64,000 nucleotides of DNA from an uncultured Thiomicrospira sp. (GTDB lineage Bacteria > Pseudomonadota > Gammaproteobacteria > CAKMZV01): positions 1,536,001 to 1,600,000 of the forward strand of contig OZ239628.1 of NCBI GenBank assembly GCA_965195345.1, read 5' to 3'. A program made the position numbers and the translations under genes. Shown piece after piece: positions 4,376 to 42,727 of the stretch (positions are counted from its first letter, which is position 1; each line of letters starts with the position of its first letter). The notes under the pieces are model-generated. The model saw only the letters and a list, made by a program, of their open reading frames with translations, made no database searches and had not been told where the DNA came from.

Positions 4376-5176
4376 ATGCCTCTTAAATTTGGGTTAAAAT
4401 TTTCCATACTAACACTGTTATGTGTAGCACTTCTCTATACTGACATCAATCTGAAATGGCTCCAAGGGATTCGTCAAACACTACTCATCCCTTTGACACC
4501 ATTTCACGCATTACCGACTAAAGCACACAACCTTTCTAATTGGATTCAATCCTTAGGTCTTTTTCAAAGTGCTCTTCTTGAAAAAAATGAACAACTGGAA
4601 ACATACAATCAAATACTTTTGTCAAGATTACACAAATTAGTTTCTCTTGAACAGGAAAACGATGCTTTGCGTGAATTGTTAGGTGTTACCGATAGAATAG
4701 GATCCGTTCGATTGCTCGTAGCCGAAACACAATCGGTTAGTTTCAATCCTTTCGACTCTAACATACTCATAGATCGAGGAACAGATGATGGCGTTTATCT
4801 GCACCAACCAGTTGTTGAACATAATGGAATCATAGGTCAAGTGAGTCAAGTCAATGAAAATCAAAGCATTGTTACTTTAATTAATTCAATCTCCCACGCC
4901 ACTCCTATTACAAACCAAAGGAATGGAGCACGTGGCATATTATTTGGAAACGGTGAAAACCTTGAACTTCGCTTTATTTTTCAAGAGAATCAATTTCGCA
5001 CGAATGACATATTGATAACTTCAGGTTTGGGTAACGTATTTCCTGCAGGATATCCAGTTGCGGTAGTTAAAGAAGTTAAAAAAAAGACAAATAATTTTAC
5101 TTCTATTGTTGCTAAGCCACTGGCTTCGCTGAACACAGCTCGATACGTTCTGCTATTGTGGGATGATCAAGAATGA
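4376..5176 (+). CDS. mreC: Rod shape-determining protein MreC
   Basis: N-terminal TM helix, coiled coil ENDALRELL, TSGLGNVFPAGYPVA; follows mreB. Confidence 0.95.
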   Translation: MPLKFGLKFSILTLLCVALLYTDINLKWLQGIRQTLLIPLTPFHALPTKAHNLSNWIQSLGLFQSALLEKNEQLETYNQILLSRLHKLVSLEQENDALRELLGVTDRIGSVRLLVAETQSVSFNPFDSNILIDRGTDDGVYLHQPVVEHNGIIGQVSQVNENQSIVTLINSISHATPITNQRNGARGILFGNGENLELRFIFQENQFRTNDILITSGLGNVFPAGYPVAVVKEVKKKTNNFTSIVAKPLASLNTARYVLLLWDDQE

Positions 5177-5679
5177 TTTTATATAACGAAAAAAACTTTG
5201 CTGATTTAAGTTATCGCCTTGTGGCCTTTTCTCTTGTCATCTCCTTATTTATCTACATATTACCTTGGGATAAATCACTCAAAATACTGTTACCTGACTT
5301 TCCTCTTTTAACGGTGCTTTTTGTAATACGCCATTCACCGAAACGTTATGGGCTTATCTTGGCGTTCTCAATCGGTTTAATTCAAGACGTTCTTCTCTTT
5401 ATGCCTTTAGGTTTAAATGCATTTATTTTTTTAAGTTCTGCTGTTATTTGTTTAATCTTCTTCAACCGTCCTTATCAAATTAGCAATGTCCAAGAAGCTA
5501 TCCTTACCTTTATATTATTTTTCTTATCAAAAATAATCCATTTGATCGCACTAGAGCTATTATTGACTGAACCAAACTATGGTGAAGTAATGATCCCTTT
5601 GATAATTTCATTGTTTTTTTCTACCGCTTTATGGATGATGATGCGTGCTTTAGTCCTCTTATACTATAGTGATAGGTAA
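5173..5679 (+). CDS. mreD: Rod shape-determining protein MreD
   Basis: Hydrophobic 168 aa, PDF..L, GLIQDVL...PLGLNA; lies between mreC and mrdA. Confidence 0.9.
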   Translation: MILYNEKNFADLSYRLVAFSLVISLFIYILPWDKSLKILLPDFPLLTVLFVIRHSPKRYGLILAFSIGLIQDVLLFMPLGLNAFIFLSSAVICLIFFNRPYQISNVQEAILTFILFFLSKIIHLIALELLLTEPNYGEVMIPLIISLFFSTALWMMMRALVLLYYSDR

Positions 5680-5681
5680 TT

Positions 5682-7547
5682 ATGGTATACCAACAACAAA
5701 AACGACAATATATCAATAATGCGCATACGGAAAATAGTATTCTCAGTGGACGCATTATTTTCCTATTTATCATATGCCTTTTATTGATAGCCACTCTATT
5801 AATTCGCATCATTGATCTGCAGCTATTCAAACATGAAAAATTCTCTCTTTATTCAGATAGAAATCGACTAGACATAATTTCTTTAGCACCTTCCCGTAGC
5901 AATATTTATGATCGCAATGGAAAGTTACTCGCAACCAATCATCCTTCATTTAACCTTGAAATACATCCTAAACAACTTAAACGTACCAACTACACAGAGG
6001 TATTGGATACTTTATCAGAAATTGTCACATTAGACGAAAATGACAAAAATAAAATCATTAGAGCCATACAAAAAGGCACTAATAACCCATTACTGATAAA
6101 GCAAAATATCAGTGAAGTAGTCGTCGCTCAAATTAGTGCTCGATTAAACAAACTACCAGGGGTGCGTATAAAATCAGAACCCAAACGTTACTATCCTTAC
6201 GGTTCTGTTGGTTCACATGTTATTGGATACACTGACATAGTCAAAGCAGAGGACATTGAAAAAAACGACCCTCAATCTTTACGAGGGATTAAGCGAGTAG
6301 GACGTAAAGGCATAGAGGCGTATTACGATACATGGTTGAGAGGAAAAGCTGGATATGCCACTATTGAGCAAGATGTTTTGGGTAATGATATTCGCGAAAT
6401 AACAAGCACGAATCCAACCGACGGAATGCCATTAACATTAAGCATAGACATCCAACTTCAACAATACATTGAAGAGCTAATATCCCCATTTAAAGGTTCA
6501 GTAGTTGTTGTTGACACACACAATGGTGAGGTTTTATCTTTAGTCAGTATGCCAAATTATGATCTCAACCTAATTATAGGTGAGCGTAACAGTTCAGAGT
6601 ATAAGACACTGATTCGATCTCTCGATAGCCCATTTCTAAATCGTGCTATTAACGGACAATACTCACCAGGATCTACGTTCAAACCATTCATCGCATTAGC
6701 AGGCATGGAAAAAAATAAACTTGATCCTAATAAGAAAGTTTTTGCAGGTCCATATTATCAAATACCAGGGAAATTAAAACATAAATTCTATGATTGGAAA
6801 GACGGTGGTCATGGTTGGGTTAACTTGGATACCGCTATAGCTCAATCATGCGATGTTTATTTTTATGATTTAGCCTATCGTATTGGTATTGACGATCTCC
6901 ATGAATACCTTTCACAATTTTATTTTGGTTCTTCAACAGGAATTGATTTACCTAATGAAAGTGCTGGACTTCTTCCTTATCGAGCATGGAAAAAAGAAAA
7001 AAAATCGATTCGTTGGTACCCAGGAGAAACTGTTATTTTCGGAATTGGTCAAGGATACTTGCTAACCACTCCTCTGCAAATGGCTGTTAATATGTCAGCT
7101 ATCGCCAATAGAGGTCGACTCATTTCACCCAAAATAACCTTGAACTCTCCGACCACATCCTCAAAAAATCAATCCAAAACCATTCCTACTGCAAACACAC
7201 TTTACTGGAACAAAGTAACGAGTGCTTTGCATAATAGTATTTCCAAAAAATATGGAACAGCACATAAAATATCCACAGGAGCAAAATACTCGATAGCTGG
7301 GAAAACTGGAACAGTCCAGGTATTTCAGCTATCTCAAGATAAAGAAATACGAAAAAAACAAAAAGAGATAACACAGGAAAAACTACGTGACCATTCTGTC
7401 TTTACTGCTTTCGCCCCAGTGAACAATCCTCGAATTTCAATCGCAGTCGTCATTGAAAATGGCGGAAGTGGGAGTTCATTAGCAGCACCTATTGCGCGTG
7501 ATGTAATGGATAAATATTTTGAACTATACCCTCTAAATCATCTGTGA
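5682..7547 (+). CDS. mrdA: Penicillin-binding protein 2
   Basis: IYDRNG, RYYPYG, PGSTFK (SxxK), SCD, KTGT. Confidence 0.96.
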   Translation: MVYQQQKRQYINNAHTENSILSGRIIFLFIICLLLIATLLIRIIDLQLFKHEKFSLYSDRNRLDIISLAPSRSNIYDRNGKLLATNHPSFNLEIHPKQLKRTNYTEVLDTLSEIVTLDENDKNKIIRAIQKGTNNPLLIKQNISEVVVAQISARLNKLPGVRIKSEPKRYYPYGSVGSHVIGYTDIVKAEDIEKNDPQSLRGIKRVGRKGIEAYYDTWLRGKAGYATIEQDVLGNDIREITSTNPTDGMPLTLSIDIQLQQYIEELISPFKGSVVVVDTHNGEVLSLVSMPNYDLNLIIGERNSSEYKTLIRSLDSPFLNRAINGQYSPGSTFKPFIALAGMEKNKLDPNKKVFAGPYYQIPGKLKHKFYDWKDGGHGWVNLDTAIAQSCDVYFYDLAYRIGIDDLHEYLSQFYFGSSTGIDLPNESAGLLPYRAWKKEKKSIRWYPGETVIFGIGQGYLLTTPLQMAVNMSAIANRGRLISPKITLNSPTTSSKNQSKTIPTANTLYWNKVTSALHNSISKKYGTAHKISTGAKYSIAGKTGTVQVFQLSQDKEIRKKQKEITQEKLRDHSVFTAFAPVNNPRISIAVVIENGGSGSSLAAPIARDVMDKYFELYPLNHL

Positions 7548-8647
7548 AAAACAGTTTGAAATCGTTCGCCGCGCTGATCACAATTGATTGGTATTTGCTA
7601 TTATTATTTCTTATCTTTGCTGTTGTTTCTCTCGTTCTACTATACAGTGCTGGTAGTGGCGAGTTTCAATATGTACAAAAGCAGGCGTTGAATTTTTTGA
7701 TTGCTTTTATTTCTATGTTAGTAATTGCTCAACTACCCGTAAGGCATATACGTACACTAACACCTTGGATCTATTTATTATTTATTGGATTGTTAATATT
7801 TGTACTGTTTGCTGGGCAAACTGGGAAAGGCGCTCAACGTTGGATTTCATTTGGTGGCATCAGCCTGCAGCCTTCCGAAATTGTGAAAGTCATTCTTCCA
7901 GCGATGCTCGTATGGTGGCTAGAAAAAACACGGGGCAGCAACCAATCTATAATCGTTTGGTTAGGGTTTATCATACTAACTTGTGTGCCTCTTGCGCTTA
8001 TCGTCTTACAACCAGACTTAGGCACAAGCTTAATGATTTCTGCTAATGTCATTATCATCATAATCGCCATTGGAGTATCCAAAAAAAAAATAGCCGGTCT
8101 GTTTGCCCTAGGAATATCGGCTCTGCCTATATTATGGTTAAACATGCACGCCTATCAAAAGTCGCGTGTACTCACTTTTCTTGATCCTTTCAAAGACCCA
8201 TTAGGTCATGGATATCACGTAATCCAGTCGCAGACAGCAATTGGCTCTGGAGGTATAGTCGGAAAAGGATGGCTGAATGGAACGCAATCTCAACTTAATT
8301 TCGTACCCGAACAACACACTGATTTTATCTTTTCCCTTCTCGCTGAGGAGTTTGGATTCATTGGTATTATTGTTCTTTTTTTGTTATATTTTTGTGTGTT
8401 AATACGTGGATTATTGATAGCATGGAATGCACAAAATTTTTTCACACAAGTGCTCGCCATCTCTCTAACTACCAGTTTTTTTATAAATGCGATTGTTAAT
8501 ATTGCTATGGTGACAGGTTTGCTACCCGTGGTGGGATTGCCATTGCCTCTCATTAGTTATGGAGGAAGTGCGCTGTTGACACACGCGCTTGCCTTTGGAC
8601 TGCTGATATCGATCGGATCTCATAAACTCTACATAATAAATAAATGA
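7544..8647 (+). CDS. rodA: Rod shape-determining protein RodA (SEDS family)
   Basis: GAQRW, QPSE, QPDLGT, PEQHTDFIF, LISYGGS. Confidence 0.96.
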   Translation: MKNSLKSFAALITIDWYLLLLFLIFAVVSLVLLYSAGSGEFQYVQKQALNFLIAFISMLVIAQLPVRHIRTLTPWIYLLFIGLLIFVLFAGQTGKGAQRWISFGGISLQPSEIVKVILPAMLVWWLEKTRGSNQSIIVWLGFIILTCVPLALIVLQPDLGTSLMISANVIIIIIAIGVSKKKIAGLFALGISALPILWLNMHAYQKSRVLTFLDPFKDPLGHGYHVIQSQTAIGSGGIVGKGWLNGTQSQLNFVPEQHTDFIFSLLAEEFGFIGIIVLFLLYFCVLIRGLLIAWNAQNFFTQVLAISLTTSFFINAIVNIAMVTGLLPVVGLPLPLISYGGSALLTHALAFGLLISIGSHKLYIINK

Positions 8648-11900: not shown

Positions 11901-11977
11901 TGGTCGGGACGGCAGGATTTGAACCTGCGACCCCCACAACCCCATTGTGGTGCGCTACCAAGCTGCGCTACGCCCCG
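11901..11977 (-). tRNA. tRNA-Pro(GGG)
   Basis: Minus strand CGGGGCGTAGCGCAGCTTGGTAGCGCA-CCACA-ATGGGGT-TGTGG...GGTTCAAATCC...CGACCA; cloverleaf, GGG anticodon, CCA end. Confidence 0.96.
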
Positions 11978-13199: not shown

Positions 13200-14477
13200 T
13201 CACAAATCTTCTACTTGTATTTTCCCTGTTAAAAACTTCAGTTGTAGAGCGTCCAGCCATAACTGCAATTGAATTGAGCGCAGATCCGTTTTAGCAGATA
13301 TTAAGTTACGCCGCGCGTTCACAACTTCTATCAATTCACTCAATCCCACCAACAATGATTCATTTGTTGCCTCAAGAGCAGATTCTTGCGCCTTTACAAG
13401 TGCACTAAGCGCTGGCAGTTGCCCTACCCCATTATCAACACGTGCCAAAAGCTGATCCAGCTGAGCAATAATCTCTCTTTCAGTATTTTCAACTTGAAAT
13501 GCTGAACTACGCACCAAAGCTTTCGCCTCATCATGCTGTGCTTGACGCACTCCACCATTATAAAGCACCCAATTGAAATTGAACTGAATACCGATATCTC
13601 TTGAGTCCTGAAGCGAAGTAGTTTCAGTTTCAAATTCGGTTTGTAGCCAAGAAACAGTGAAGTTGGCCGTAGGAAATATACGTTGCGCAACCGCGTCAGC
13701 ACCTTTATTCGCTGCTTTTATGCCTTGGCGCTCTTGCAACAATCGAAGATTATTATTCTTCACTTGCTGCACTAACTCTTCCAAAGGTAATTTATACGCT
13801 TCAATTGAATTCAGGCTAAAGTTGACATCTTCGATATTCTTAACACGTTTGCCAACAATAGAGTCGAGTACTGAAAATGCCGATTTCACATTATTGCGCA
13901 TCGCAAGCAAACTGCTTTCACTCAGTCGCAAGTCCGCTTCGGCTTGAAGCATATCAACGCGAGTGCCGCTACCGACCTCTAATCTCTGCCTAGCACGATC
14001 TGCCAAATTCCTACTGGACTTTAACTCCTGATCCGCCAAGTCTAAACGTGTTTGAGCCAAAAGAACATTCACATACGCTTGAGCCACGTCAATCATCAAG
14101 TTTTGACGAGCTAAATCTCTACCAATTTCAGATTGCTCAAGCAAAGCATTTACCTGACTGAGCCTTTTAAAAACTTCTCCATTGAATAAAACTTGTTGAA
14201 CTCGAAGTTGATGCCTGTTAAAGTCAGAAACACCATTGGTACTGTCATCATCCCTACTAACACTAAAAGTATAGTCAATTACTGGGTAAATATTGCCTAT
14301 TGCAATGTCTTTTTGAGCGCTTGCGGAATCTCTTTGAACGTCTGCTTGCAGCAAATTTGGATTATTTGTCAACGCATATTCAAACAAAGTACGCGGATTA
14401 TCAGCATAAACAGAAGTTACTGTTAATGTCCCTAATGCTACTCCAGATAGAAAAGCTTTAATCAATCCATTTATCAT
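13200..14477 (-). CDS. TolC-family outer membrane efflux protein
   Basis: Signal peptide, AL.NNP.L, two OEP repeats (VAQAY.NVL, R.EVG.GT..D..QA; LY.GG). Confidence 0.88.
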   Translation of the reverse strand: MINGLIKAFLSGVALGTLTVTSVYADNPRTLFEYALTNNPNLLQADVQRDSASAQKDIAIGNIYPVIDYTFSVSRDDDSTNGVSDFNRHQLRVQQVLFNGEVFKRLSQVNALLEQSEIGRDLARQNLMIDVAQAYVNVLLAQTRLDLADQELKSSRNLADRARQRLEVGSGTRVDMLQAEADLRLSESSLLAMRNNVKSAFSVLDSIVGKRVKNIEDVNFSLNSIEAYKLPLEELVQQVKNNNLRLLQERQGIKAANKGADAVAQRIFPTANFTVSWLQTEFETETTSLQDSRDIGIQFNFNWVLYNGGVRQAQHDEAKALVRSSAFQVENTEREIIAQLDQLLARVDNGVGQLPALSALVKAQESALEATNESLLVGLSELIEVVNARRNLISAKTDLRSIQLQLWLDALQLKFLTGKIQVEDL

Positions 14478-14940
14478 AAGGATTCTTTGCTAAATTTATA
14501 TTGTAATAACGTGGATCTGCAGTAACTTCATCACCAACCCATTCGGGCAAATCCACTACTTCTTGTTCAATTGATTCAAGTTCTATTTCAGCAATAATCA
14601 AACCTTCATTATTACCCTTGAACACATCAACTTCCCAAAACAAACCATTGTGCATAACAGGCCAACGTAACTTCTCAATTTTGTTCGTAGTAGATAAATC
14701 AAGTATTTTTTCAGCCTCGGAAAAAGAGATTCTATATTCAAATTCGTCACGAGTATGCCATTCTCCCTTAACAAACTTAATATTTACTGAACCATGCGTA
14801 CCTTGGGTTCGCACACGCACCGACACCCCATCGTTTTCACTAATAACTGCTTGGCATATTGGAATTGAAGCACTGGCAAATTCTTTCCAACTTTCATTGA
14901 TGACTAAGTACTTTTTTTCGATCTCTCTTTTATAACTCAT
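14458..14940 (-). CDS. CYTH domain protein (triphosphate tunnel metalloenzyme)
   Basis: EIEKKYLV (ExExK), VRVR, RDEFEY, WEVDVF, AEIEL, EVT.DPRY.N; start set at ATG 14940. Confidence 0.92.
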   Translation of the reverse strand: MSYKREIEKKYLVINESWKEFASASIPICQAVISENDGVSVRVRTQGTHGSVNIKFVKGEWHTRDEFEYRISFSEAEKILDLSTTNKIEKLRWPVMHNGLFWEVDVFKGNNEGLIIAEIELESIEQEVVDLPEWVGDEVTADPRYYNINLAKNPYDKWID

Positions 14941-14950
14941 AGCATTACCA

Positions 14951-15841
14951 TCAAGCAAAAACGCCTGTTGATAAATAACGATCCCCTCGATCACATACTA
15001 TGGAAACAACTACATCTTTTTTGCTTAACGTGGACGCCAATTTAAGAGCGCAGTACAAAGCACCACCTGAAGAGATCCCAGCAAAAATGCCTTCTTTTTG
15101 AGCCAATTTACGCGTCAAATTTTCTGCCTCGTTTTGATTCACTTCCATAATTTCATCAACCCGCTCTCTTTCAAAGAATTGAGGCAAGTACTCTGGTGGC
15201 CATTTGCGAATGCCAGGAATTTGGGAATTATCATCCGGTTGTACACCAACAATTTGTATCTTTGGGTTTTTTTCTTTCAAATATCGTGAGCACCCCATAA
15301 TCGTCCCTGTAGTCCCCATTGAAGAAACAAAATGCGTGATTTTCCCAGCAGTTTGTTCCCATAATTCTGGCCCAGTGGTTTGATAATGCACATTGGGATT
15401 ATTCAAGTTTGCAAATTGATTGAGTACCAAACCCTTCCCTTCTTTTTGCATTTGCAAAGCAAGGTCACGCGCGCCTTCCATTCCCTCGTCCTCTGTTACC
15501 AAAATTAATTGGGCACCATAAGCTGTCATTGCCGCGCGCCGTTCAACACTTAGATTATCGGGCATGATTAAAATCATTTTAAATCCCCGTATCGCTGCAG
15601 CCATAGCCAGTGCTATCCCAGTGTTACCGCTAGTGGCTTCAATCAATGCATCACCTTTTTTAATGATGCCACTTTTTTCAGCTTGAGAAATCATATTCAA
15701 GGCAGGCCTATCCTTTACAGATCCTGCAGGATTGTCCCCTTCTAATTTCAGCAATACAAGAGCCCCATTCTCCGATTGCAAGCGCTGCAAGCGAATCAAC
15801 GGCGTATTTCCAACACAATCTTCTATAGTCGGCCAACTCAT
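14951..15841 (-). CDS. cysM: Cysteine synthase B
   Basis: KLEGDNPAGSVKDR, EATSGNTG, SMGTTGT, IPGIRKW, CDRGDRYLSTGVF. Confidence 0.96.
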   Translation of the reverse strand: MSWPTIEDCVGNTPLIRLQRLQSENGALVLLKLEGDNPAGSVKDRPALNMISQAEKSGIIKKGDALIEATSGNTGIALAMAAAIRGFKMILIMPDNLSVERRAAMTAYGAQLILVTEDEGMEGARDLALQMQKEGKGLVLNQFANLNNPNVHYQTTGPELWEQTAGKITHFVSSMGTTGTIMGCSRYLKEKNPKIQIVGVQPDDNSQIPGIRKWPPEYLPQFFERERVDEIMEVNQNEAENLTRKLAQKEGIFAGISSGGALYCALKLASTLSKKDVVVSIVCDRGDRYLSTGVFA

Positions 15842-32271: not shown

Positions 32272-32524
32272 GGCTCGGGTACGCCCCTCAACATCCGTTT
32301 AATTAATCAATAGATGGATGCCGTTATAAAAGGCATTCCATTTTATTACGAAACCTGTTTTTTATAATTTACAGGATATATGGGACGTTAATTAAGACCC
32401 TATCAGCCATTAACGGCAATGGAAATTTATAATTTCATCCAAACATTTGAGATTTGTCGAAAAATGCGATAAGCGATCAATGATCCTTCATTTCTCTAAT
32501 GATTTTTCAACACGATCAAAGAGC

Positions 32525-32655
32525 AAAACACGTGAGCCGAAAATTAAAACGCCCCCACTAGGGAGGGCGATGGCTCGTATTGAAACTTCGCCTGCGAAAT
32601 TAAAATTTCTTGGTATGAAAAGCTATTTCGTCAGATTCCTATCAGTTATACTAAG
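32525..32655 (-). ncRNA. tracrRNA of the type II-C system (ends approximate)
   Basis: 21-nt perfect anti-repeat at 32630-32650; on the minus strand it is followed by CAAG, a GAAAT-TTTA-ATTTC hairpin, a nested GAGCC/CGCCC..GGGCG/GGCTC stem and a U-rich tail. Confidence 0.85.
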
Positions 32656-32686
32656 TAAATACATTTTAACTTCAAAAGAGAATTCT

Positions 32687-35827: not shown

Positions 35828-36742
35828 GTGATTAAAAGAATCATTGATATTGCCCAACCAAGTATGCTTTCAATAAAGAACAATCAATTATGTATTCAGC
35901 AAAACAAAGAGATTGTTAGCCAAACCCCTGTAGAAGATCTCGGTATATTGATTTTTTCACATTATGCTATTACATTATCATCTTATGTCATTAGCAAATG
36001 CCAAGAGAATAATGTAGTGGTCATCTTCTGCGATAAGAGAATGCTCCCCTGCTCCGTGTTCCTCCCTATATTTCAAGCAAACAATTTGCACCATAAAGTA
36101 CTCCAGCAACAGATGAATGCTTCGGTAACAAAGCACAAACAACTTTGGAAACAAGTCGTTACTCATAAAATAGATCAACAGTCTAAGACATTGAAAAAAC
36201 TTAATAGGCCGACTGCGTATTTACAACGGGTGATGAAAAACATTCTAACAGGCGATCGAACAAACGTTGAAGCACAAGCTGCACAATATTACTGGAAACA
36301 TTTGTTTGGAAAACCCTTTAAGCGCGACACAGCCCTTGATGGGTACAATCAACTATTCAATTACGGCTACGCTATAGCACGTTCAATGGTTGCGCGCGCG
36401 TTATGTGGCGCAGGGCTTCACCCTACCATTGGTATATTTCATCGCAATCAAAACAATGGGCTATGTTTAGCCGATGATTTAATTGAACCTTTTCGTCCTT
36501 GGGTTGATTATCTAATTGTTACACATCTCAATGATTGCGATAATGCAACAGTCGATAAGCTTTTCAAGTCTCGGATTCTTTCGTTACCTGCACTGCAAAT
36601 CCAGTATAAAAGCAAACGCATGCCATTGATGGTTGCTCTGCATTATTTAATGGCAGATTTCAAAGAAGGATTGAGCAGACCTCTAAAATTGGAGTATCCA
36701 CAATGGGATCGAGACATCACCGAGTGGTTTACGGAGGATTAG
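35828..36742 (+). CDS. cas1: Type II CRISPR-associated integrase Cas1
   Basis: PVEDLG, EAQAAQYYW, N..FNYGYA..R, GIFH.N..N...LADDLIEPFRP. Confidence 0.97.
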   Translation: MIKRIIDIAQPSMLSIKNNQLCIQQNKEIVSQTPVEDLGILIFSHYAITLSSYVISKCQENNVVVIFCDKRMLPCSVFLPIFQANNLHHKVLQQQMNASVTKHKQLWKQVVTHKIDQQSKTLKKLNRPTAYLQRVMKNILTGDRTNVEAQAAQYYWKHLFGKPFKRDTALDGYNQLFNYGYAIARSMVARALCGAGLHPTIGIFHRNQNNGLCLADDLIEPFRPWVDYLIVTHLNDCDNATVDKLFKSRILSLPALQIQYKSKRMPLMVALHYLMADFKEGLSRPLKLEYPQWDRDITEWFTED

Positions 36743-37053
36743 ACAGCATGTGGGTTATCGTACTTTTCGATTTACCAACAGATACCAAGAAAGCACGCAG
36801 ACAATACACGCTATTTCGCAAGCACCTATTAAACGATGGTTTCACCATGATGCAGTATTCAGTTTATATGCGCCACAGTGCGAGCGATGAAAATGCTGAA
36901 GTTCATGTAAAGAGAGTAAAGCAAACATTACCTCCCGATGGAGAAGTGCGAATTATAAAAATTACTGATAAGCAGTTCTCACGTATTCAAGTATTTTATG
37001 GGAAAAACCGCAAACCCATCGAACAAGCCCCATCACAATTATCACTTTTATGA
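36703..37053 (+). CDS. cas2: CRISPR-associated protein Cas2
   Basis: MWVIVLFDLPT, FRK.LL.DGF.MMQYSVY.R, ITDKQF; alternative start ATG 36748 has GGAGG upstream. Confidence 0.97.
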   Translation: MGSRHHRVVYGGLDSMWVIVLFDLPTDTKKARRQYTLFRKHLLNDGFTMMQYSVYMRHSASDENAEVHVKRVKQTLPPDGEVRIIKITDKQFSRIQVFYGKNRKPIEQAPSQLSLL

Positions 37054-37103
37054 CAATCTTAACGGGGCTAAATTTAACAAAATCAAATATTTACAACAAC
37101 TCA

Positions 37104-39981
37104 GATTATAACTGATAGGAATCTGACTGCAAATCACAACTACAAACGTATACGAAGACCTTTTGAGAAGATTATAACTGATAGGAATCTGACTGCAAAT
37201 CACAACTCTCAGAATTACAGCTCCGTAATTCCTCACGATTATAACTGATAGGAATCTGACTGCAAATCACAACCTCCAGACAAGACTATGTTATTCAGTC
37301 GGTGATTATAACTGATAGGAATCTGACTGCAAATCACAACAGACAAAGTGCCACCGCCATCAGCGCAAGAGATTATAACTGATAGGAATCTGACTGCAAA
37401 TCACAACCGGATATACGGCTGTTAATAAACGTTAGCTGATTATAACTGATAGGAATCTGACTGCAAATCACAACCTCTAAGGGTGTGCATGATGATATTG
37501 TGGAGATTATAACTGATAGGAATCTGACTGCAAATCACAACTGAGCGGCGACAGCGTAATTGTGCTTTCTGGATTATAACTGATAGGAATCTGACTGCAA
37601 ATCACAACTTTGACAAATACCTCCCCGATTGCAACCATGATTATAACTGATAGGAATCTGACTGCAAATCACAACACGTTAATACCTTTAATCACTTTAT
37701 TTTTTGATTATAACTGATAGGAATCTGACTGCAAATCACAACGCTAAGCAGGTTGTAGAAAAACCTGATATGGATTATAACTGATAGGAATCTGACTGCA
37801 AATCACAACTCTTCTAATGTCACTACTGCCATTGTTCTTGATTATAACTGATAGGAATCTGACTGCAAATCACAACTATTATAACTCACTCCCATTGGTT
37901 TAGCAGATTATAACTGATAGGAATCTGACTGCAAATCACAACTATGAATAATCCAGCTTACACCTACAGAGAGATTATAACTGATAGGAATCTGACTGCA
38001 AATCACAACTTGTGTTGATGATTTGGCACTTGAAATTTTGATTATAACTGATAGGAATCTGACTGCAAATCACAACAAAAATGACGCAAGAAGAATTTAA
38101 CGATTTGATTATAACTGATAGGAATCTGACTGCAAATCACAACCTGTAGTTTAGTAGGTATTTGTTGCTGCGGGATTATAACTGATAGGAATCTGACTGC
38201 AAATCACAACAATGAACAGTAAAACCCAGTTCAGCATCTGGATTATAACTGATAGGAATCTGACTGCAAATCACAACTTGTGTATGTGTCTATCAATTGT
38301 TGAACAGATTATAACTGATAGGAATCTGACTGCAAATCACAACAGCCAAGCACAAACATATCAGTCCCTTTGGGATTATAACTGATAGGAATCTGACTGC
38401 AAATCACAACTTGAGCATAGGCAGTAGCAAAAAGGAAGTAGATTATAACTGATAGGAATCTGACTGCAAATCACAACTGAAACAGCTGTGGTATCTTTTT
38501 CAGTGATGATTATAACTGATAGGAATCTGACTGCAAATCACAACTTGTGGCCAATGGGAGCGTTACTTCATAGCGATTATAACTGATAGGAATCTGACTG
38601 CAAATCACAACTACAAAGGTAATCTCACAAAAAGTCAAACTGATTATAACTGATAGGAATCTGACTGCAAATCACAACTCAAAATCAAGAATGATGCGAC
38701 TGGAACATGATTATAACTGATAGGAATCTGACTGCAAATCACAACTCTACAAAGGTTCTTTTATATCTATGGAAAGATTATAACTGATAGGAATCTGACT
38801 GCAAATCACAACCATTTTAGTCGTCTTTAATCATGGAGTGCGGATTATAACTGATAGGAATCTGACTGCAAATCACAACTTCTTCCGTGACCACCCTCTA
38901 CTGCAATTTGATTATAACTGATAGGAATCTGACTGCAAATCACAACTTATTGAAAAAATACATCGACCGCTGTAGTGATTATAACTGATAGGAATCTGAC
39001 TGCAAATCACAACTATGCTCACAAAACTATCAAACAGCCATTTGATTATAACTGATAGGAATCTGACTGCAAATCACAACTGTTACTGAAGAAGATAGGC
39101 TAATTATCTGGATTATAACTGATAGGAATCTGACTGCAAATCACAACAAGAGGTTGTGTTTAATGGAATATTTACCTGATTATAACTGATAGGAATCTGA
39201 CTGCAAATCACAACTGTTACTGAAGAAGATAGGCTAATTATCTGGATTATAACTGATAGGAATCTGACTGCAAATCACAACAAGAGGTTGTGTTTAATGG
39301 AATATTTACCTGATTATAACTGATAGGAATCTGACTGCAAATCACAACTAAGCATTTGCGCACTAAAAGAAGCCCTGCGATTATAACTGATAGGAATCTG
39401 ACTGCAAATCACAACTCTCAGCCTTTGGCGTGTCATTTATTTTCTGATTATAACTGATAGGAATCTGACTGCAAATCACAACTAAGTAGAAGGTGCTATT
39501 CGCAGATGAATAGATTATAACTGATAGGAATCTGACTGCAAATCACAACGGGGGTGGGCGTGTGCGTTTTCAAAACCAAGATTATAACTGATAGGAATCT
39601 GACTGCAAATCACAACACTAAGAACTAACGCAAATTCTACAACCGAGATTATAACTGATAGGAATCTGACTGCAAATCACAACTGTGACATTAGTCGGGG
39701 TGGCAGGAGTGGGGATTATAACTGATAGGAATCTGACTGCAAATCACAACTGGTTAGGATAATGGGATTTAGAAAAGAAGACTTTGCGCGCATGCAAACA
39801 ATCGAGCGTGCTTTTATTTTAAAAACAATTGCCGAATAATCTCGACAAGCGAACGGTAAAAGATAACGATGCACACGAGCATTCCAAGTATTATTAACTC
39901 CATTAGAGGGATTGTAGCATGAATGATTTAAGAGTTAATATTGAGATTATAACTGGTAGGAATCTGACTGCAAATCACAAT
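37104..39981 (-). CRISPR. CRISPR array: 41 repeats of 37 nt (+ strand GATTATAACTGATAGGAATCTGACTGCAAATCACAAC), 39 spacers of 29-30 nt plus one 194-nt interval
   Basis: 40 identical repeats from 37104 to 39750 counted by hand; terminal repeat 39945-39981 has 2 substitutions; strand inferred from tracr complementarity and GTTGTG...TATAATC orientation. Confidence 0.98.
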
Positions 39982-40104
39982 CTCGCAGTTAAAGCAATAC
40001 CTATAAGGTCAGGTAATAACTTATCATCTTTCATTTCCTGAATAACGTTTTCTTTTTGCCATCTCAAGTTAAATCGTGGACAATATGCATATTACCAAAA
40101 TCAT

Positions 40105-40136
40105 AAAAAACGGGGGTTTTTCCTTCAAAAACCCCC
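40105..40136 (-). terminator. Rho-independent terminator-like hairpin
   Basis: GGGGGTTTTT-CCTTC-AAAAACCCCC 10-bp stem with an A6 run on its left, giving a U-tract on the minus strand. Confidence 0.6.
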
Positions 40137-40165
40137 ACTAAATAGACTGGAGCAGTTTTATCAGC

Positions 40166-42727
40166 ATGACCACCCATACTCCTATGATGCAGCAGTACCT
40201 ACGGATAAAAGCTGATCATCCAGATATGCTGTTGTTTTATCGTATGGGCGATTTCTATGAATTATTTTTTGACGACGCTAAACGTGCTAATAGCCTTCTT
40301 GATATTACGTTAACGCACAGAGGGAAATCTAGTGGTGAACCCATCCCAATGGCTGGCGTTCCCTATCATAGCGTCGATAATTATTTGAGTCGCTTGCTTG
40401 AATTAGGTGAGTCAATCGTCATTTGTGAACAGGTTGGGGAGGTCACAGGAAAGGGCCCTGTTGAACGCCAAGTTACTCGCATCATCACTCCTGGCACTTT
40501 AATTGATGAAAACCTTTTAAAAAATTCAAGCGCAAATTATTTATTAAGCGCTTGGTGTGAGAATAACATTTGGGGCTGTGCTTGGTTGGATTTATCAAGT
40601 GGCGAATTTTGTTGCAAACAGGTTGACGATAAGCTTCAACTTGAAGCTGAAATTGAGCGCATGCACCCACAAGAGATATTAATCACTTATGAGCATGCAC
40701 TATTGCTAAAAAACGAGCGTGTGCACAACATTCCCGAATGGTGGTTTGATAAAGATAACGCTTTCAATGTCTTATGCAAACAATTTAAAACGCATGACCT
40801 ATCTGGATTCGGCGTCAACGAGAAGCCTTTGGCTTTGATGTGTGCAGGAGCTGCTTTAATATACGCGAAAGAAATGCATCGGACTTCGCTGGCACATATA
40901 AATACCATTCAAGTTGAAAACAATAACGAGTACGTCTATCTTGATGCTGTTTGTAGACGTAACCTTGAAATTGAATATAACTTGCAAGGCACACGGCTTC
41001 ATACATTAATGGCCGTTCTTGATAATACCCAGACCCCCATGGGGAAAAGACTTTTAAATCAATGGATTAATGCTCCTTTGAGAAGCAACTCAATACTAAT
41101 GCAACGTTTAAATTCCATTGAAAGTATGATGCAAAATGAGCAAAGTCCTAAGATACGCCATTTACTAAAATCATTTGGGGACATTCCACGAATATTAACA
41201 CGTATAGCCCTCGAAACAGCAAGACCTCGCGATCTCTCGCAATTAAGACTGGCGCTTGATAACATTCCCATCCTAAATGATCTTTTACAACCATGTATTG
41301 AGTCAATTAATCCTTTGAAGTCTTGTCCTGAAGTACTTGAATTATTACAAAAATCAATAGTTGAAGAACCGCCTGTACTGATTCGCGATGGAGGCGCTAT
41401 TAAGAAAGGTTTCAATGAAGAGCTGGATGACTTGCGTACATTACGCGAAAATGCTGCAGAATATTTGTTAAAACTTGAAGGAGAAGAAAAAGAACGAACA
41501 AACAACCCCAATCTGCGTGTTAGTTACAATCGCGTGCACGGCTATTACATTGAAATATCTCATGGTTTCAAAGGAGAAATACCAGCACACTATCAGCGCA
41601 GACAAACACTTAAAAATGCGGAGCGTTATATCACTCCCGAGTTGAAAAGTTTTGAGGACAAAGTATTAAGCGCGAATGAAAAGGCATTAGCGCTTGAGAA
41701 AAAACTGTTTATTGAAGTTCAAGGCAGCATTTTCAAGCATCTTAAGCTATTACAAGAGATTGCCAATCATTTTGCGTTAATCGACGTTTATTCAACGTTA
41801 GCCGAGCGCGCAACAACATTAAACTGGAACAAACCAGAATACGTAGACGACATATGTATGGACATAAAAGAAGGCAGACATCCTGTTGTGGAAGAGTCCC
41901 TCAATGAAAATTTTATTCCAAATGACTGCCACCTTGATCCTGATAAATCTTTACTGCTGATTACAGGACCTAATATGGGAGGAAAGTCGACTTATATGCG
42001 CCAAACGGCACTCATTGCTTTGCTTGCACGCAGTGGCTCTTATGTTCCAGCCAAGCATGCAAAAATAGGCAATATAGACCGTATATTTACGCGAATAGGA
42101 GCGTCCGACGATCTGGCATCCAATCGATCCACTTTTATGGTTGAGATGACAGAAACAGCCAATATTTTAAATAATGCCACGAAGCATTCTTTGATTTTAA
42201 TGGACGAAATTGGTCGCGGGACATCAACATTTGATGGATTATCTTTAGCATGGGAATGTGCTGTTTCCTTGATACAGAGGAAGGCTTTATGTTTATTTGC
42301 CACACACTATTTTGAATTAACCGCTTTAGCTCGTTCTTACGACAATGTGAATAATGTGCACCTAAAAGCAATCGAATACAAAAATGAAATTCGTTTCCTT
42401 TATCACATCGAGAATGGAGCAACCAATCAATCGTATGGTTTACAAGTTGCCCAGCTTGCAGGCATACCCCAAAAGGTTATTAAGGCGGCAAGCAAGAAGC
42501 TTTGTGAATTAGAAAATCAAAATGTAAAAATAAACAACCAACTTGACCTTTTTGTTTCTTCGGATGCGGCATTACCATTGGAGAAACAAGATAGCATTGA
42601 TGACAAGGTGCAGCCTATCATAGATGAAATAAAATCAATACAACTCAATAGTCTTTCGCCTTTACAAGCTCTGAATATTTTGTCGGACATTCAAGAAAAA
42701 ATTGAAAAAGTCAATAATGAAATATAG
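40166..42727 (+). CDS. mutS: DNA mismatch repair protein MutS
   Basis: [45 protein letters not shown]. Confidence 0.99.

Follow-up and report, generated by a model that had tools for sequence, protein, structure and literature searches.

How does a CRISPR array whose other spacers measure 29-30 nt come to hold one interval of 194 nt, and what is the DNA inside it? The question is posed by a type II-C CRISPR-Cas locus in the 64,000-nt stretch that we analysed (hereafter the window), positions 1,536,001 to 1,600,000 of contig OZ239628.1 (assembly GCA_965195345.1) from an uncultured Thiomicrospira sp.; coordinates without further label are those of the window. Scanning the whole window with the repeat gave 41 copies of a 37-nt sequence on the plus strand between 37104 and 39981, of which R1-R40 (40/41) are perfect and R41 alone is altered, by an A>G change at position 12 and a C>T change at position 37. 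Thirty-six of the intervals are 30 nt long and three are 29 nt, and the remaining one, at 39751-39944 between R40 and R41, is about 6.5 times as long as a normal spacer. We conclude that this interval is one contiguous piece of a tailed-phage genome sitting within the oldest slot of an otherwise ordinary II-C array; that it came from a phage and fills a spacer slot exactly we hold with high confidence.

The ruler length, which is 29-31 nt in this subfamily, is broken by the 194-nt insert alone, the other 39 intervals all lying at 29-30 nt. Its length does not equal 30 plus a multiple of 67, and the initial annotation had the coordinates, the length and this arithmetic exactly right. A decayed repeat inside the insert was considered and rejected: aligned locally to the insert, the repeat scores 13 at best, where shuffled sequences average 13.9, and 365 of 500 shuffles score 13 or more, so that here too the earlier judgement held. 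Both flanks are full repeats, with neither a partial repeat nor a remnant of a spacer. Elsewhere in the array, spacers 32-33 repeat 30-31, so that the ordinary spacers number 37 when duplicates are counted once. A two-spacer block with its repeats (134 nt) stands in exact tandem duplicate (39043-39176 equals 39177-39310, in the region 39081-39348), which shows repeat-mediated recombination within the array.

On the plus strand the insert reads as a junction between two genes, which is how it had been described in the initial annotation. All parts are present: an open frame stops at TAA 39837-39839, GAGGG follows at 39906-39910, and ATG 39919 is followed by eight more codons before the repeat cuts in. 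We searched the open frame with phmmer against 1.84 billion protein representatives and obtained two matches at E <= 0.001, the better of which (P0002, E 5.6e-6) is a 126-aa metagenomic protein, a singleton cluster from one 220,783-bp ENA contig, while the other is a low-complexity repeat protein. P0002 covers 39753-39863 of the window; at the window's TAA it has Q, and then eight residues that are the same as those encoded in the window up to the stop at 39864-39866. For P0002 itself, the family matches are DUF1799 (PF08809; E 7.3e-16) and phrog_680 (category tail; E 2.5e-18), and the phage collection has 11 matches at 35-42% identity, in siphophages of Pseudomonas, Stenotrophomonas, Pantoea and Enterobacter. 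The match in Enterobacter phage Phc bears the annotation 'tape measure chaperone' and stands 38 nt ahead of the tape-measure gene; by position, then, the gene starting at ATG 39919 would be the tape-measure gene. A junction of tail chaperone and tape measure had been no more than a loose resemblance in the initial annotation, and P0002, DUF1799, phrog_680 and the gene order of phage Phc together bear it out.

Searches for the donor phage were without success. A contiguous match in phage databases, which had been proposed as the sign of capture, was not obtained with blastn or the other searches: the 194 nt gave chance matches alone against 50,697 phage records (blastn, <=37 bits, E = 8), the 28-aa frame gave no match against phages and plasmids (tblastn), the 28-aa and 40-aa frames found nothing in Pfam and PHROGs save DUF7421 at E 0.16, and an exact 28-mer of the conserved core had 0 matches in each of the viral, metagenome and genome contig collections. 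With P0002 as query, no related locus was found in viral and metagenome contigs, a protein homologue search returned P0002 itself only, and 400 genomes of the class held relatives at 37-41% identity only, in 2 genomes. The 28-aa frame gave nothing at E < 0.1 in 60 relatives of the organism. One genome among the closest Cas9 relatives (G154, locus L072) carries two identical DUF1799 chaperone homologues, 41% identical to P0002, at C11:51788-52090 and C11:1185578-1185880; one of them lies ~6 kb upstream of its cas9, and thus a prophage tail module adjoins that CRISPR locus.

Direct evidence that the insert is collinear with phage DNA came from Logan contigs of four runs, which we aligned to 39560-40500. 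In run X1, the end of a 13.6-kb contig matches 39751-39829 (79 nt, 7 differences), and to the left of 39751 it continues in non-repeat sequence, of which 30 in-frame letters translate as P0002 residues 80-89. An 88-nt X1 contig matches 39800-39887 with 0 differences, and a 7.3-kb X1 contig matches 39858-39945 over its first 88 nt with 7 differences before running rightward into non-repeat sequence, where the frame of ATG 39919 stays open for 10 more codons beyond 39945. These three overlapping pieces span 39751-39945 and extend past both borders; phage or prophage DNA of the ordinary kind therefore contains, uninterrupted, a relative that is ~91% identical. Homology to this phage-type relative ends <=1 nt from the repeat borders (39751 on one side and 39944/39945 on the other), the R41 border being ambiguous by 1 nt because G 39945 also matches the phage-type contig.

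The array side of the junction is also found outside the assembly. A 12-kb X1 contig and two X2 contigs match 39858-40500 and 39874-40500 with 0 differences, and taken together the X1 and X2 contigs span 39800-40500 with 0 differences, from the right part of the insert through R41 and the trailer into mutS, which confirms the insert-R41 junction and what follows it. No X1 or X2 contig holds the leftmost 49 nt of the insert in exact form, variants only being found, so the confirmation from reads that the initial annotation had called for was obtained for the right half, R41 and the trailer and not for these 49 nt. Run X1 also holds a 515-nt low-depth contig over 39717-39829, in which the last ~26-34 nt of a repeat are joined to a diverged left part of the insert (10 differences) and which then runs ~400 nt into unrelated sequence. 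This contig may represent another copy of the pseudo-spacer that has decayed, or else come from a different strain whose CRISPR underwent a deletion.

The age of the slot can be read from the direction of transcription. A minus-strand promoter, TTTGCA-N17-TATAAT (10/12 to consensus), is found in 4/4 repeats scanned, R41 included, and to judge from the sequence the CRISPR RNAs (crRNAs) are transcribed on the minus strand from promoters within the repeats. A strong intrinsic terminator lies upstream of R41 in this sense and is likely to insulate the array from outside transcription. As far as two published accounts describe the II-C systems of Neisseria and Campylobacter, their promoters are likewise internal to the repeats, new spacers go in at the cas-proximal repeat, which is transcribed last, the first-transcribed repeat is the oldest, an 'extra' one that often carries mutations, and terminators sometimes lie upstream of the array (PMC12080349; PMC12477760). 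The minus-strand promoters in the repeats, the mutated R41 and the upstream terminator thus make the 194-nt interval the oldest slot. Coordinates of this and the other features are collected in Table 1.

Table 1. Features of the 194-nt insert, its array and the surrounding locus, with the two comparable inserts from other II-C arrays (positions in the window, except for the last two rows, which are positions in loci L104 and L101)
Feature	Position	Strand	Basis or remark
194-nt pseudo-spacer, contiguous phage fragment	39751..39944	no strand	repeat scan, X1 contigs, P0002 homology
3' end of DUF1799 tape-measure-chaperone gene, 28 codons + TAA	39753..39839	+	24/28 identical to P0002 residues 90-117
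Ribosome-binding site GAGGG (39906-39910) and first codons (ATG 39919) of next phage gene, cut by R41	39906..39944	+	frame, X1 contig
Candidate Cas9 guide, ~24 nt beside R40	39751..39774	-	inferred from II-C crRNA anatomy
R41, oldest 'extra' repeat	39945..39981	-	2 changes, promoter hexamers intact
Main array, R1-R40 with 39 spacers of 29-30 nt	37104..39750	- (crRNA sense)	repeat scan and repeat promoters
Intrinsic terminator	40109..40139	-	13-bp stem and T-run; upstream of R41 in crRNA sense
mutS-like gene beside array	40166..42727	+	open reading frame; name from N-terminal translation
Candidate tracrRNA (trans-activating crRNA)	32550..32653	-	anti-repeat 32617-32653, terminator hairpin 32550-32569, T-run; in silico
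cas9, 1045 aa	32687..35824	+	ATG start; Pfam HNH_4, RuvC_III, Cas9_a
cas1	35828..36742	+	Pfam Cas_Cas1, E 2.3e-32
cas2	36703..37053	+	Pfam CRISPR_Cas2, E 2.4e-21
L104 insert, 953 nt (G248)	6952-7940	open reading frame co-oriented with repeat promoters	methyltransferase open reading frame cut by repeat
L101 insert, 1303 nt (G246)	4852-6190	open reading frames co-oriented with repeat promoters	DUF4160/DUF2442 pair and Phd/YefM-YafQ-like pair

In all other respects the locus is of the usual II-C kind. Its cas genes are cas9, cas1 and cas2 alone, repeats of ~36 nt and spacers of ~30 nt lie downstream of cas2, and at the level of sequence there is a tracrRNA candidate with an anti-repeat; neither csn2 nor cas4 follows cas2, and 50 nt (37054-37103, the acquisition-side leader) separate it from the first repeat. 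The intact cas1 and cas2 and the 39 ruler-length spacers indicate that an active integrase was once present here. The tracrRNA candidate is predicted to pair with the crRNA-sense repeat at -37.2 kcal/mol (21 bp perfect, an internal loop and a lower stem), and its predicted pairing with R41 is weaker (-32.2 kcal/mol). The anti-repeat lies just 35 nt upstream of the cas9 start, so the promoters of tracrRNA and cas9 must be back to back; for the same distance of 35 nt we rejected the converse arrangement, in which both the array and a tracrRNA ahead of cas9 would be on the plus strand. The program-made open reading frame of cas9 begins at TTG 32447 and so overlaps the candidate tracrRNA gene, which is encoded on the opposite strand (32447-32686); the true start is most likely ATG 32687.

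Cas9 is 42-51% identical to the Cas9 of 10 other II-C loci, which came from a genome search; with Cas9 as query against genome contigs, no close related locus was found. The loci with the closest Cas9 share the layout cas9-cas1-cas2-array, and their repeats read GTTGTGA... or near it opposite the cas strand. Anti-repeat-like matches (about <=12/36 mismatches) lie upstream of cas9 in 5/8 related loci with arrays, and also in L101 and L104, two loci discussed below, each of which has its separate anti-repeat there. A lone direct repeat copy stands beyond cas9 in three other loci, L089 (~11915-11950, G328), L156 (~12226, G652) and L160 (7309, G544), with 2, 7 and 8 mismatches, that of L089 being a nearly perfect anti-repeat (34/36). 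Unlike the arrangement in the window, these lone copies fit a tracrRNA encoded opposite to the crRNAs.

Such lone copies bear on an alternative to capture, namely that R41 and the insert are a native functional element: R41 would be a tracrRNA anti-repeat or part of a regulatory RNA gene with the 194 nt as its promoter region, or the whole a conserved leader or trailer. The two transitions in R41 would retain G:U pairing with a minus-strand crRNA, and in L089, L156 and L160 the lone, distant repeat-like copy fits a tracrRNA anti-repeat. We nevertheless regard this explanation as very improbable. A superior tracrRNA candidate, complete with terminator, lies upstream of cas9 at a position conserved in relatives, for which reason R41 was rejected as the anti-repeat; and the 194 nt are homologous to a pair of phage genes. 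A conserved leader, trailer or RNA gene was rejected too, since the RNA downstream of R41 is unstructured (fold z = -0.26), the insert has no Rfam match, and it is not conserved, with no match in 10 related II-C loci (blastn and tblastx) or in 60 relatives, including the two other species of the genus. Nor does the insert look like a transposable or miniature element, having no convincing terminal inverted repeats, no target duplication, no open reading frame > 52 aa and no second copy in the 1.92-Mb single-contig genome. An assembly artefact, in which a phage read was joined into the array, would be in keeping with the lack of any X1 or X2 contig pairing the exact left 49 nt with a full repeat, yet it too has only a very slight probability: the genome is a single 1.92-Mb contig in which both junctions are exact, the insert-R41 junction lies within contigs, from two samples of a single study, that match 39800-40500 or 39874-40500 without a difference, and in the 515-nt contig the end of a repeat adjoins a variant form of the insert's left part. 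Conservation as a leader in related II-C loci, a match to the host chromosome only and misassembly had been named in the initial annotation as grounds against capture, and what we found was no conservation in the 10 II-C loci or 60 relatives, no second host copy, and independent contigs carrying the right half, R41 and the trailer.

How unusual is such an insert? We surveyed 57 II-C arrays including that of the window, with 1,403 intervals in total (1,363 in the 56 others); some of these arrays are cut by contig ends, and orientation was checked just for the arrays with outliers. In the 56 other arrays all intervals are 22-32 nt long save for two terminal inserts, one insertion sequence (IS), one masked stretch and the irregular array of L090. 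Over-long gaps comprise the three anti-repeats beyond cas9 (L089, L156, L160), the IS (L152), the masked stretch (L162) and three pseudo-spacer-like inserts, which are the 194 nt of the window, 953 nt in L104 and 1303 nt in L101. All three (3/3) occupy the cas-distal, oldest interval of their arrays, which have 40, 14 and 8 intervals, so that the chance of this under uniform position is ~2e-4 (1/40 x 1/14 x 1/8). L101 and L104 share a repeat family, although their inserts are unrelated. As for the other irregular arrays, L152 carries an IS256-like element with a ~427-aa transposase open reading frame inside a CRISPR repeat, with a short target duplication (14208-15739, G610), and L090 has 12 perfect repeats at irregular intervals of 18-64 nt, unlike the other II-C arrays surveyed (13868-14644, G319).

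By which route did the phage DNA enter? Exact borders and collinearity are compatible both with faulty prespacer processing and with recombination with earlier spacers, and we rank the integrase first, recombination second and some other process at the old end third. Tentatively, we favour integration of an over-long prespacer by Cas1-Cas2. The complex would have joined both ends of a prespacer that had escaped trimming to the 30-nt ruler length; to judge from its place, the 194-nt insert was probably among the first inserts of the array, and 39 later spacers would then have been added at the cas2-proximal end. A weak hint of a protospacer adjacent motif (PAM) accords with this, in that N4-ATC is the crRNA-sense 3' flank both of spacer S19 and of the insert on its R40-proximal side, as read from the X1 contig. 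Over 29/29 nt, S19 (38344-38373) matches a thymidylate synthase gene found in the Roseobacter phages CRP-5 and CRP-235, and what it targets is probably some conserved gene that phages carry and not CRP-5 or CRP-235 themselves. For the other 36 unique spacers no protospacer was found beyond chance matches in the own genome, phage records, plasmids or the 60 relatives, the search of the relatives finding only a related array in one of them (G004); whether other spacers match the phage of the insert had been raised in the initial annotation, and none could be tied to it. Several points weigh against entry through the integrase. Cas1-Cas2 measures its substrate, 39/40 intervals of this array are 29-30 nt, and we know of no direct evidence for a II-C Cas1-Cas2 integrating ~200 bp. 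The donor itself was not found, the closest relatives being 86% (protein) and ~91% (DNA) identical, and the PAM hint comes from two flanks only, one of them from a heterologous phage. The survey has 0 pseudo-spacers among ~1,346 non-terminal intervals against 3/57 terminal ones (57 arrays), which argues against integration errors spread evenly over time; either a founding insert is special or some other process acts at the old end. Finally, a model of recombination between two spacers predicts the same structure. The initial reading of the insert as an untrimmed prespacer integrated whole stands as far as foreign DNA kept whole in a spacer slot is concerned; its second part, entry as an untrimmed prespacer, is no more than the favoured of two routes that give the same structure.

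Recombination of this kind would have been guided by spacers: two neighbouring, co-oriented spacers lying ~134 nt apart on the phage would have recombined with phage DNA, by double crossover or gene conversion, with the intervening repeat replaced by the phage's own sequence. This would yield exact repeat borders and full collinearity, as observed; the array does recombine, given its duplicated two-spacer block, and a related phage or prophage co-occurs with the organism in run X1. Recombination between spacers and phage protospacers was reportedly seen in staphylococci by Varble et al. in 2019. A route of this kind is also the second of those proposed, in the published account, for the archaeal pseudo-spacer SiL-E1 (PMC3718332). 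We consider it possible but rather unlikely here, because it requires two adjacent co-oriented spacers from within 194 nt as well as crossovers on 30-nt homologies, and because under the tentative N4-ATC PAM the internal site for the second spacer (39915-39944) is 2 nt out of register, itself a weak point. Moreover, differences from the phage-type X1 contigs reach 49 and 57 nt inward rather than 30 nt, so no trace of old spacers is visible, and recombination alone leaves the terminal position of 3/3 inserts in 57 arrays unexplained. That position, common to the 953-nt insert of L104 and the 1303-nt insert of L101, is what speaks for another process at the old end, either single-crossover integration of a phage at a matching old spacer followed by deletion of most of the prophage, or a recombination or repair event specific to the trailer, independent of normal adaptation, that captured DNA between the extra repeat and the array; the X1 contig graph, too, has array-type and phage-type continuations around a shared 88-nt core. 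We think such a process unlikely. A single crossover with internal deletion would leave a circularly permuted remnant, whereas the insert keeps the canonical order of chaperone, gap and next gene; illegitimate joins rarely fall <=1 nt from both repeat borders; and no known mechanism targets the oldest interval.

If Cas1-Cas2 was indeed responsible, the terminal position might reflect how arrays begin. A II-C array with a single repeat, with a Cas9 that lacks crRNA, is described as acquiring spacers at very high rates, the 'super-adaptation' of N. meningitidis (PMC12477760). Long unprocessed DNA might accordingly enter as the founding insert of II-C arrays, at the single-repeat stage with a crRNA-free Cas9, although we regard this as doubtful. 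If true, it would account for the oldest-interval position of the 194-, 953- and 1303-nt inserts alike; an oversized oldest 'spacer' would be a fossil from the birth of its array, and Cas1-Cas2 would act on substrates of 0.2-1.3 kb in the manner of a casposase.

Any function that the insert has now would be limited. In II-C crRNAs, as described for Neisseria, the guide lies 5' of the repeat handle and the crRNA starts at the 6th nt of each spacer (PMC12477760). The promoter in R41 would by this anatomy start a long RNA ~6 nt inside the insert, and after tracrRNA-guided cleavage in R40 the guide would be limited to ~24 nt behind a ~165-nt 5' tail, so that only the ~24 nt at 39751-39774 could guide Cas9. 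The phage-type relative in X1 differs at ~3 positions within this candidate guide. The insert also contains a weak terminator-like minus-strand hairpin at 39829-39848 and two promoter-like sites, and these could alter its transcription.

Natural inserts that are 6-40x too long and yet have exact borders mean that some route bypasses both the Cas1-Cas2 ruler and the trimming nucleases, and the terminal place of all three points to array birth or to events at the trailer end. The present insert preserves phage sequence beyond the protospacer and is a record of an almost unsampled phage; its 194-bp homology with a temperate phage family could promote recombination between phage and array far more easily than 30 nt would. 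What is new is a pseudo-spacer in a bacterial Cas9 array at the oldest slot, an instance of a rare kind that has already been described, and at this single locus it amounts to a well-documented curiosity rather than a new system. A phrase search of the literature for long, oversized or giant CRISPR spacers, a method of limited reach, returned nothing relevant.

Several known systems invite comparison. In its layout of cas9-cas1-cas2, repeat promoters, mutated extra repeat and upstream terminator, the locus resembles the canonical II-C systems of Neisseria meningitidis and Campylobacter jejuni as they are described (PMC12477760; PMC12080349). Canonical II-C spacers are, however, ~30 nt long, and the insert is 6.5x longer, keeping a stop codon, an intergenic gap, a ribosome-binding site and a start codon. 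Disruption by an IS, as in L152, gives an over-long gap as well, but the IS has a transposase, inverted ends, a split repeat and a target duplication, none of which the insert has. In staphylococcal type III systems, Varble et al. are said to have found in 2019 that phage-CRISPR cointegrates form and that CRISPR loci are transduced; common to that system and ours is a spacer-phage homology able to drive exchange, the difference being that the window holds a stable oversized spacer. Closest of all is SiL-E1 itself, the ~2-kb pseudo-spacer in CRISPR_2 of Sulfolobus islandicus LAL14/1, for which either faulty prespacer processing and integration or recombination of a mobile element with pre-existing spacers was proposed (Jaubert et al., 2013; PMC3718332). 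Like SiL-E1 in its published description, the insert is oversized foreign DNA between two repeats, many spacer lengths long, and follows a mobile element over its entire length so that no position next to the repeats is left unaccounted for, here by way of relatives that are 86-91% identical; the same two routes come into question. SiL-E1 differs, by the same description, in carrying five open reading frames from a conjugative plasmid, in belonging to an archaeal type I/III system and in being followed by further spacer-repeat units, whereas the window has a 194-nt phage gene junction in a II-C array, in its last interval.

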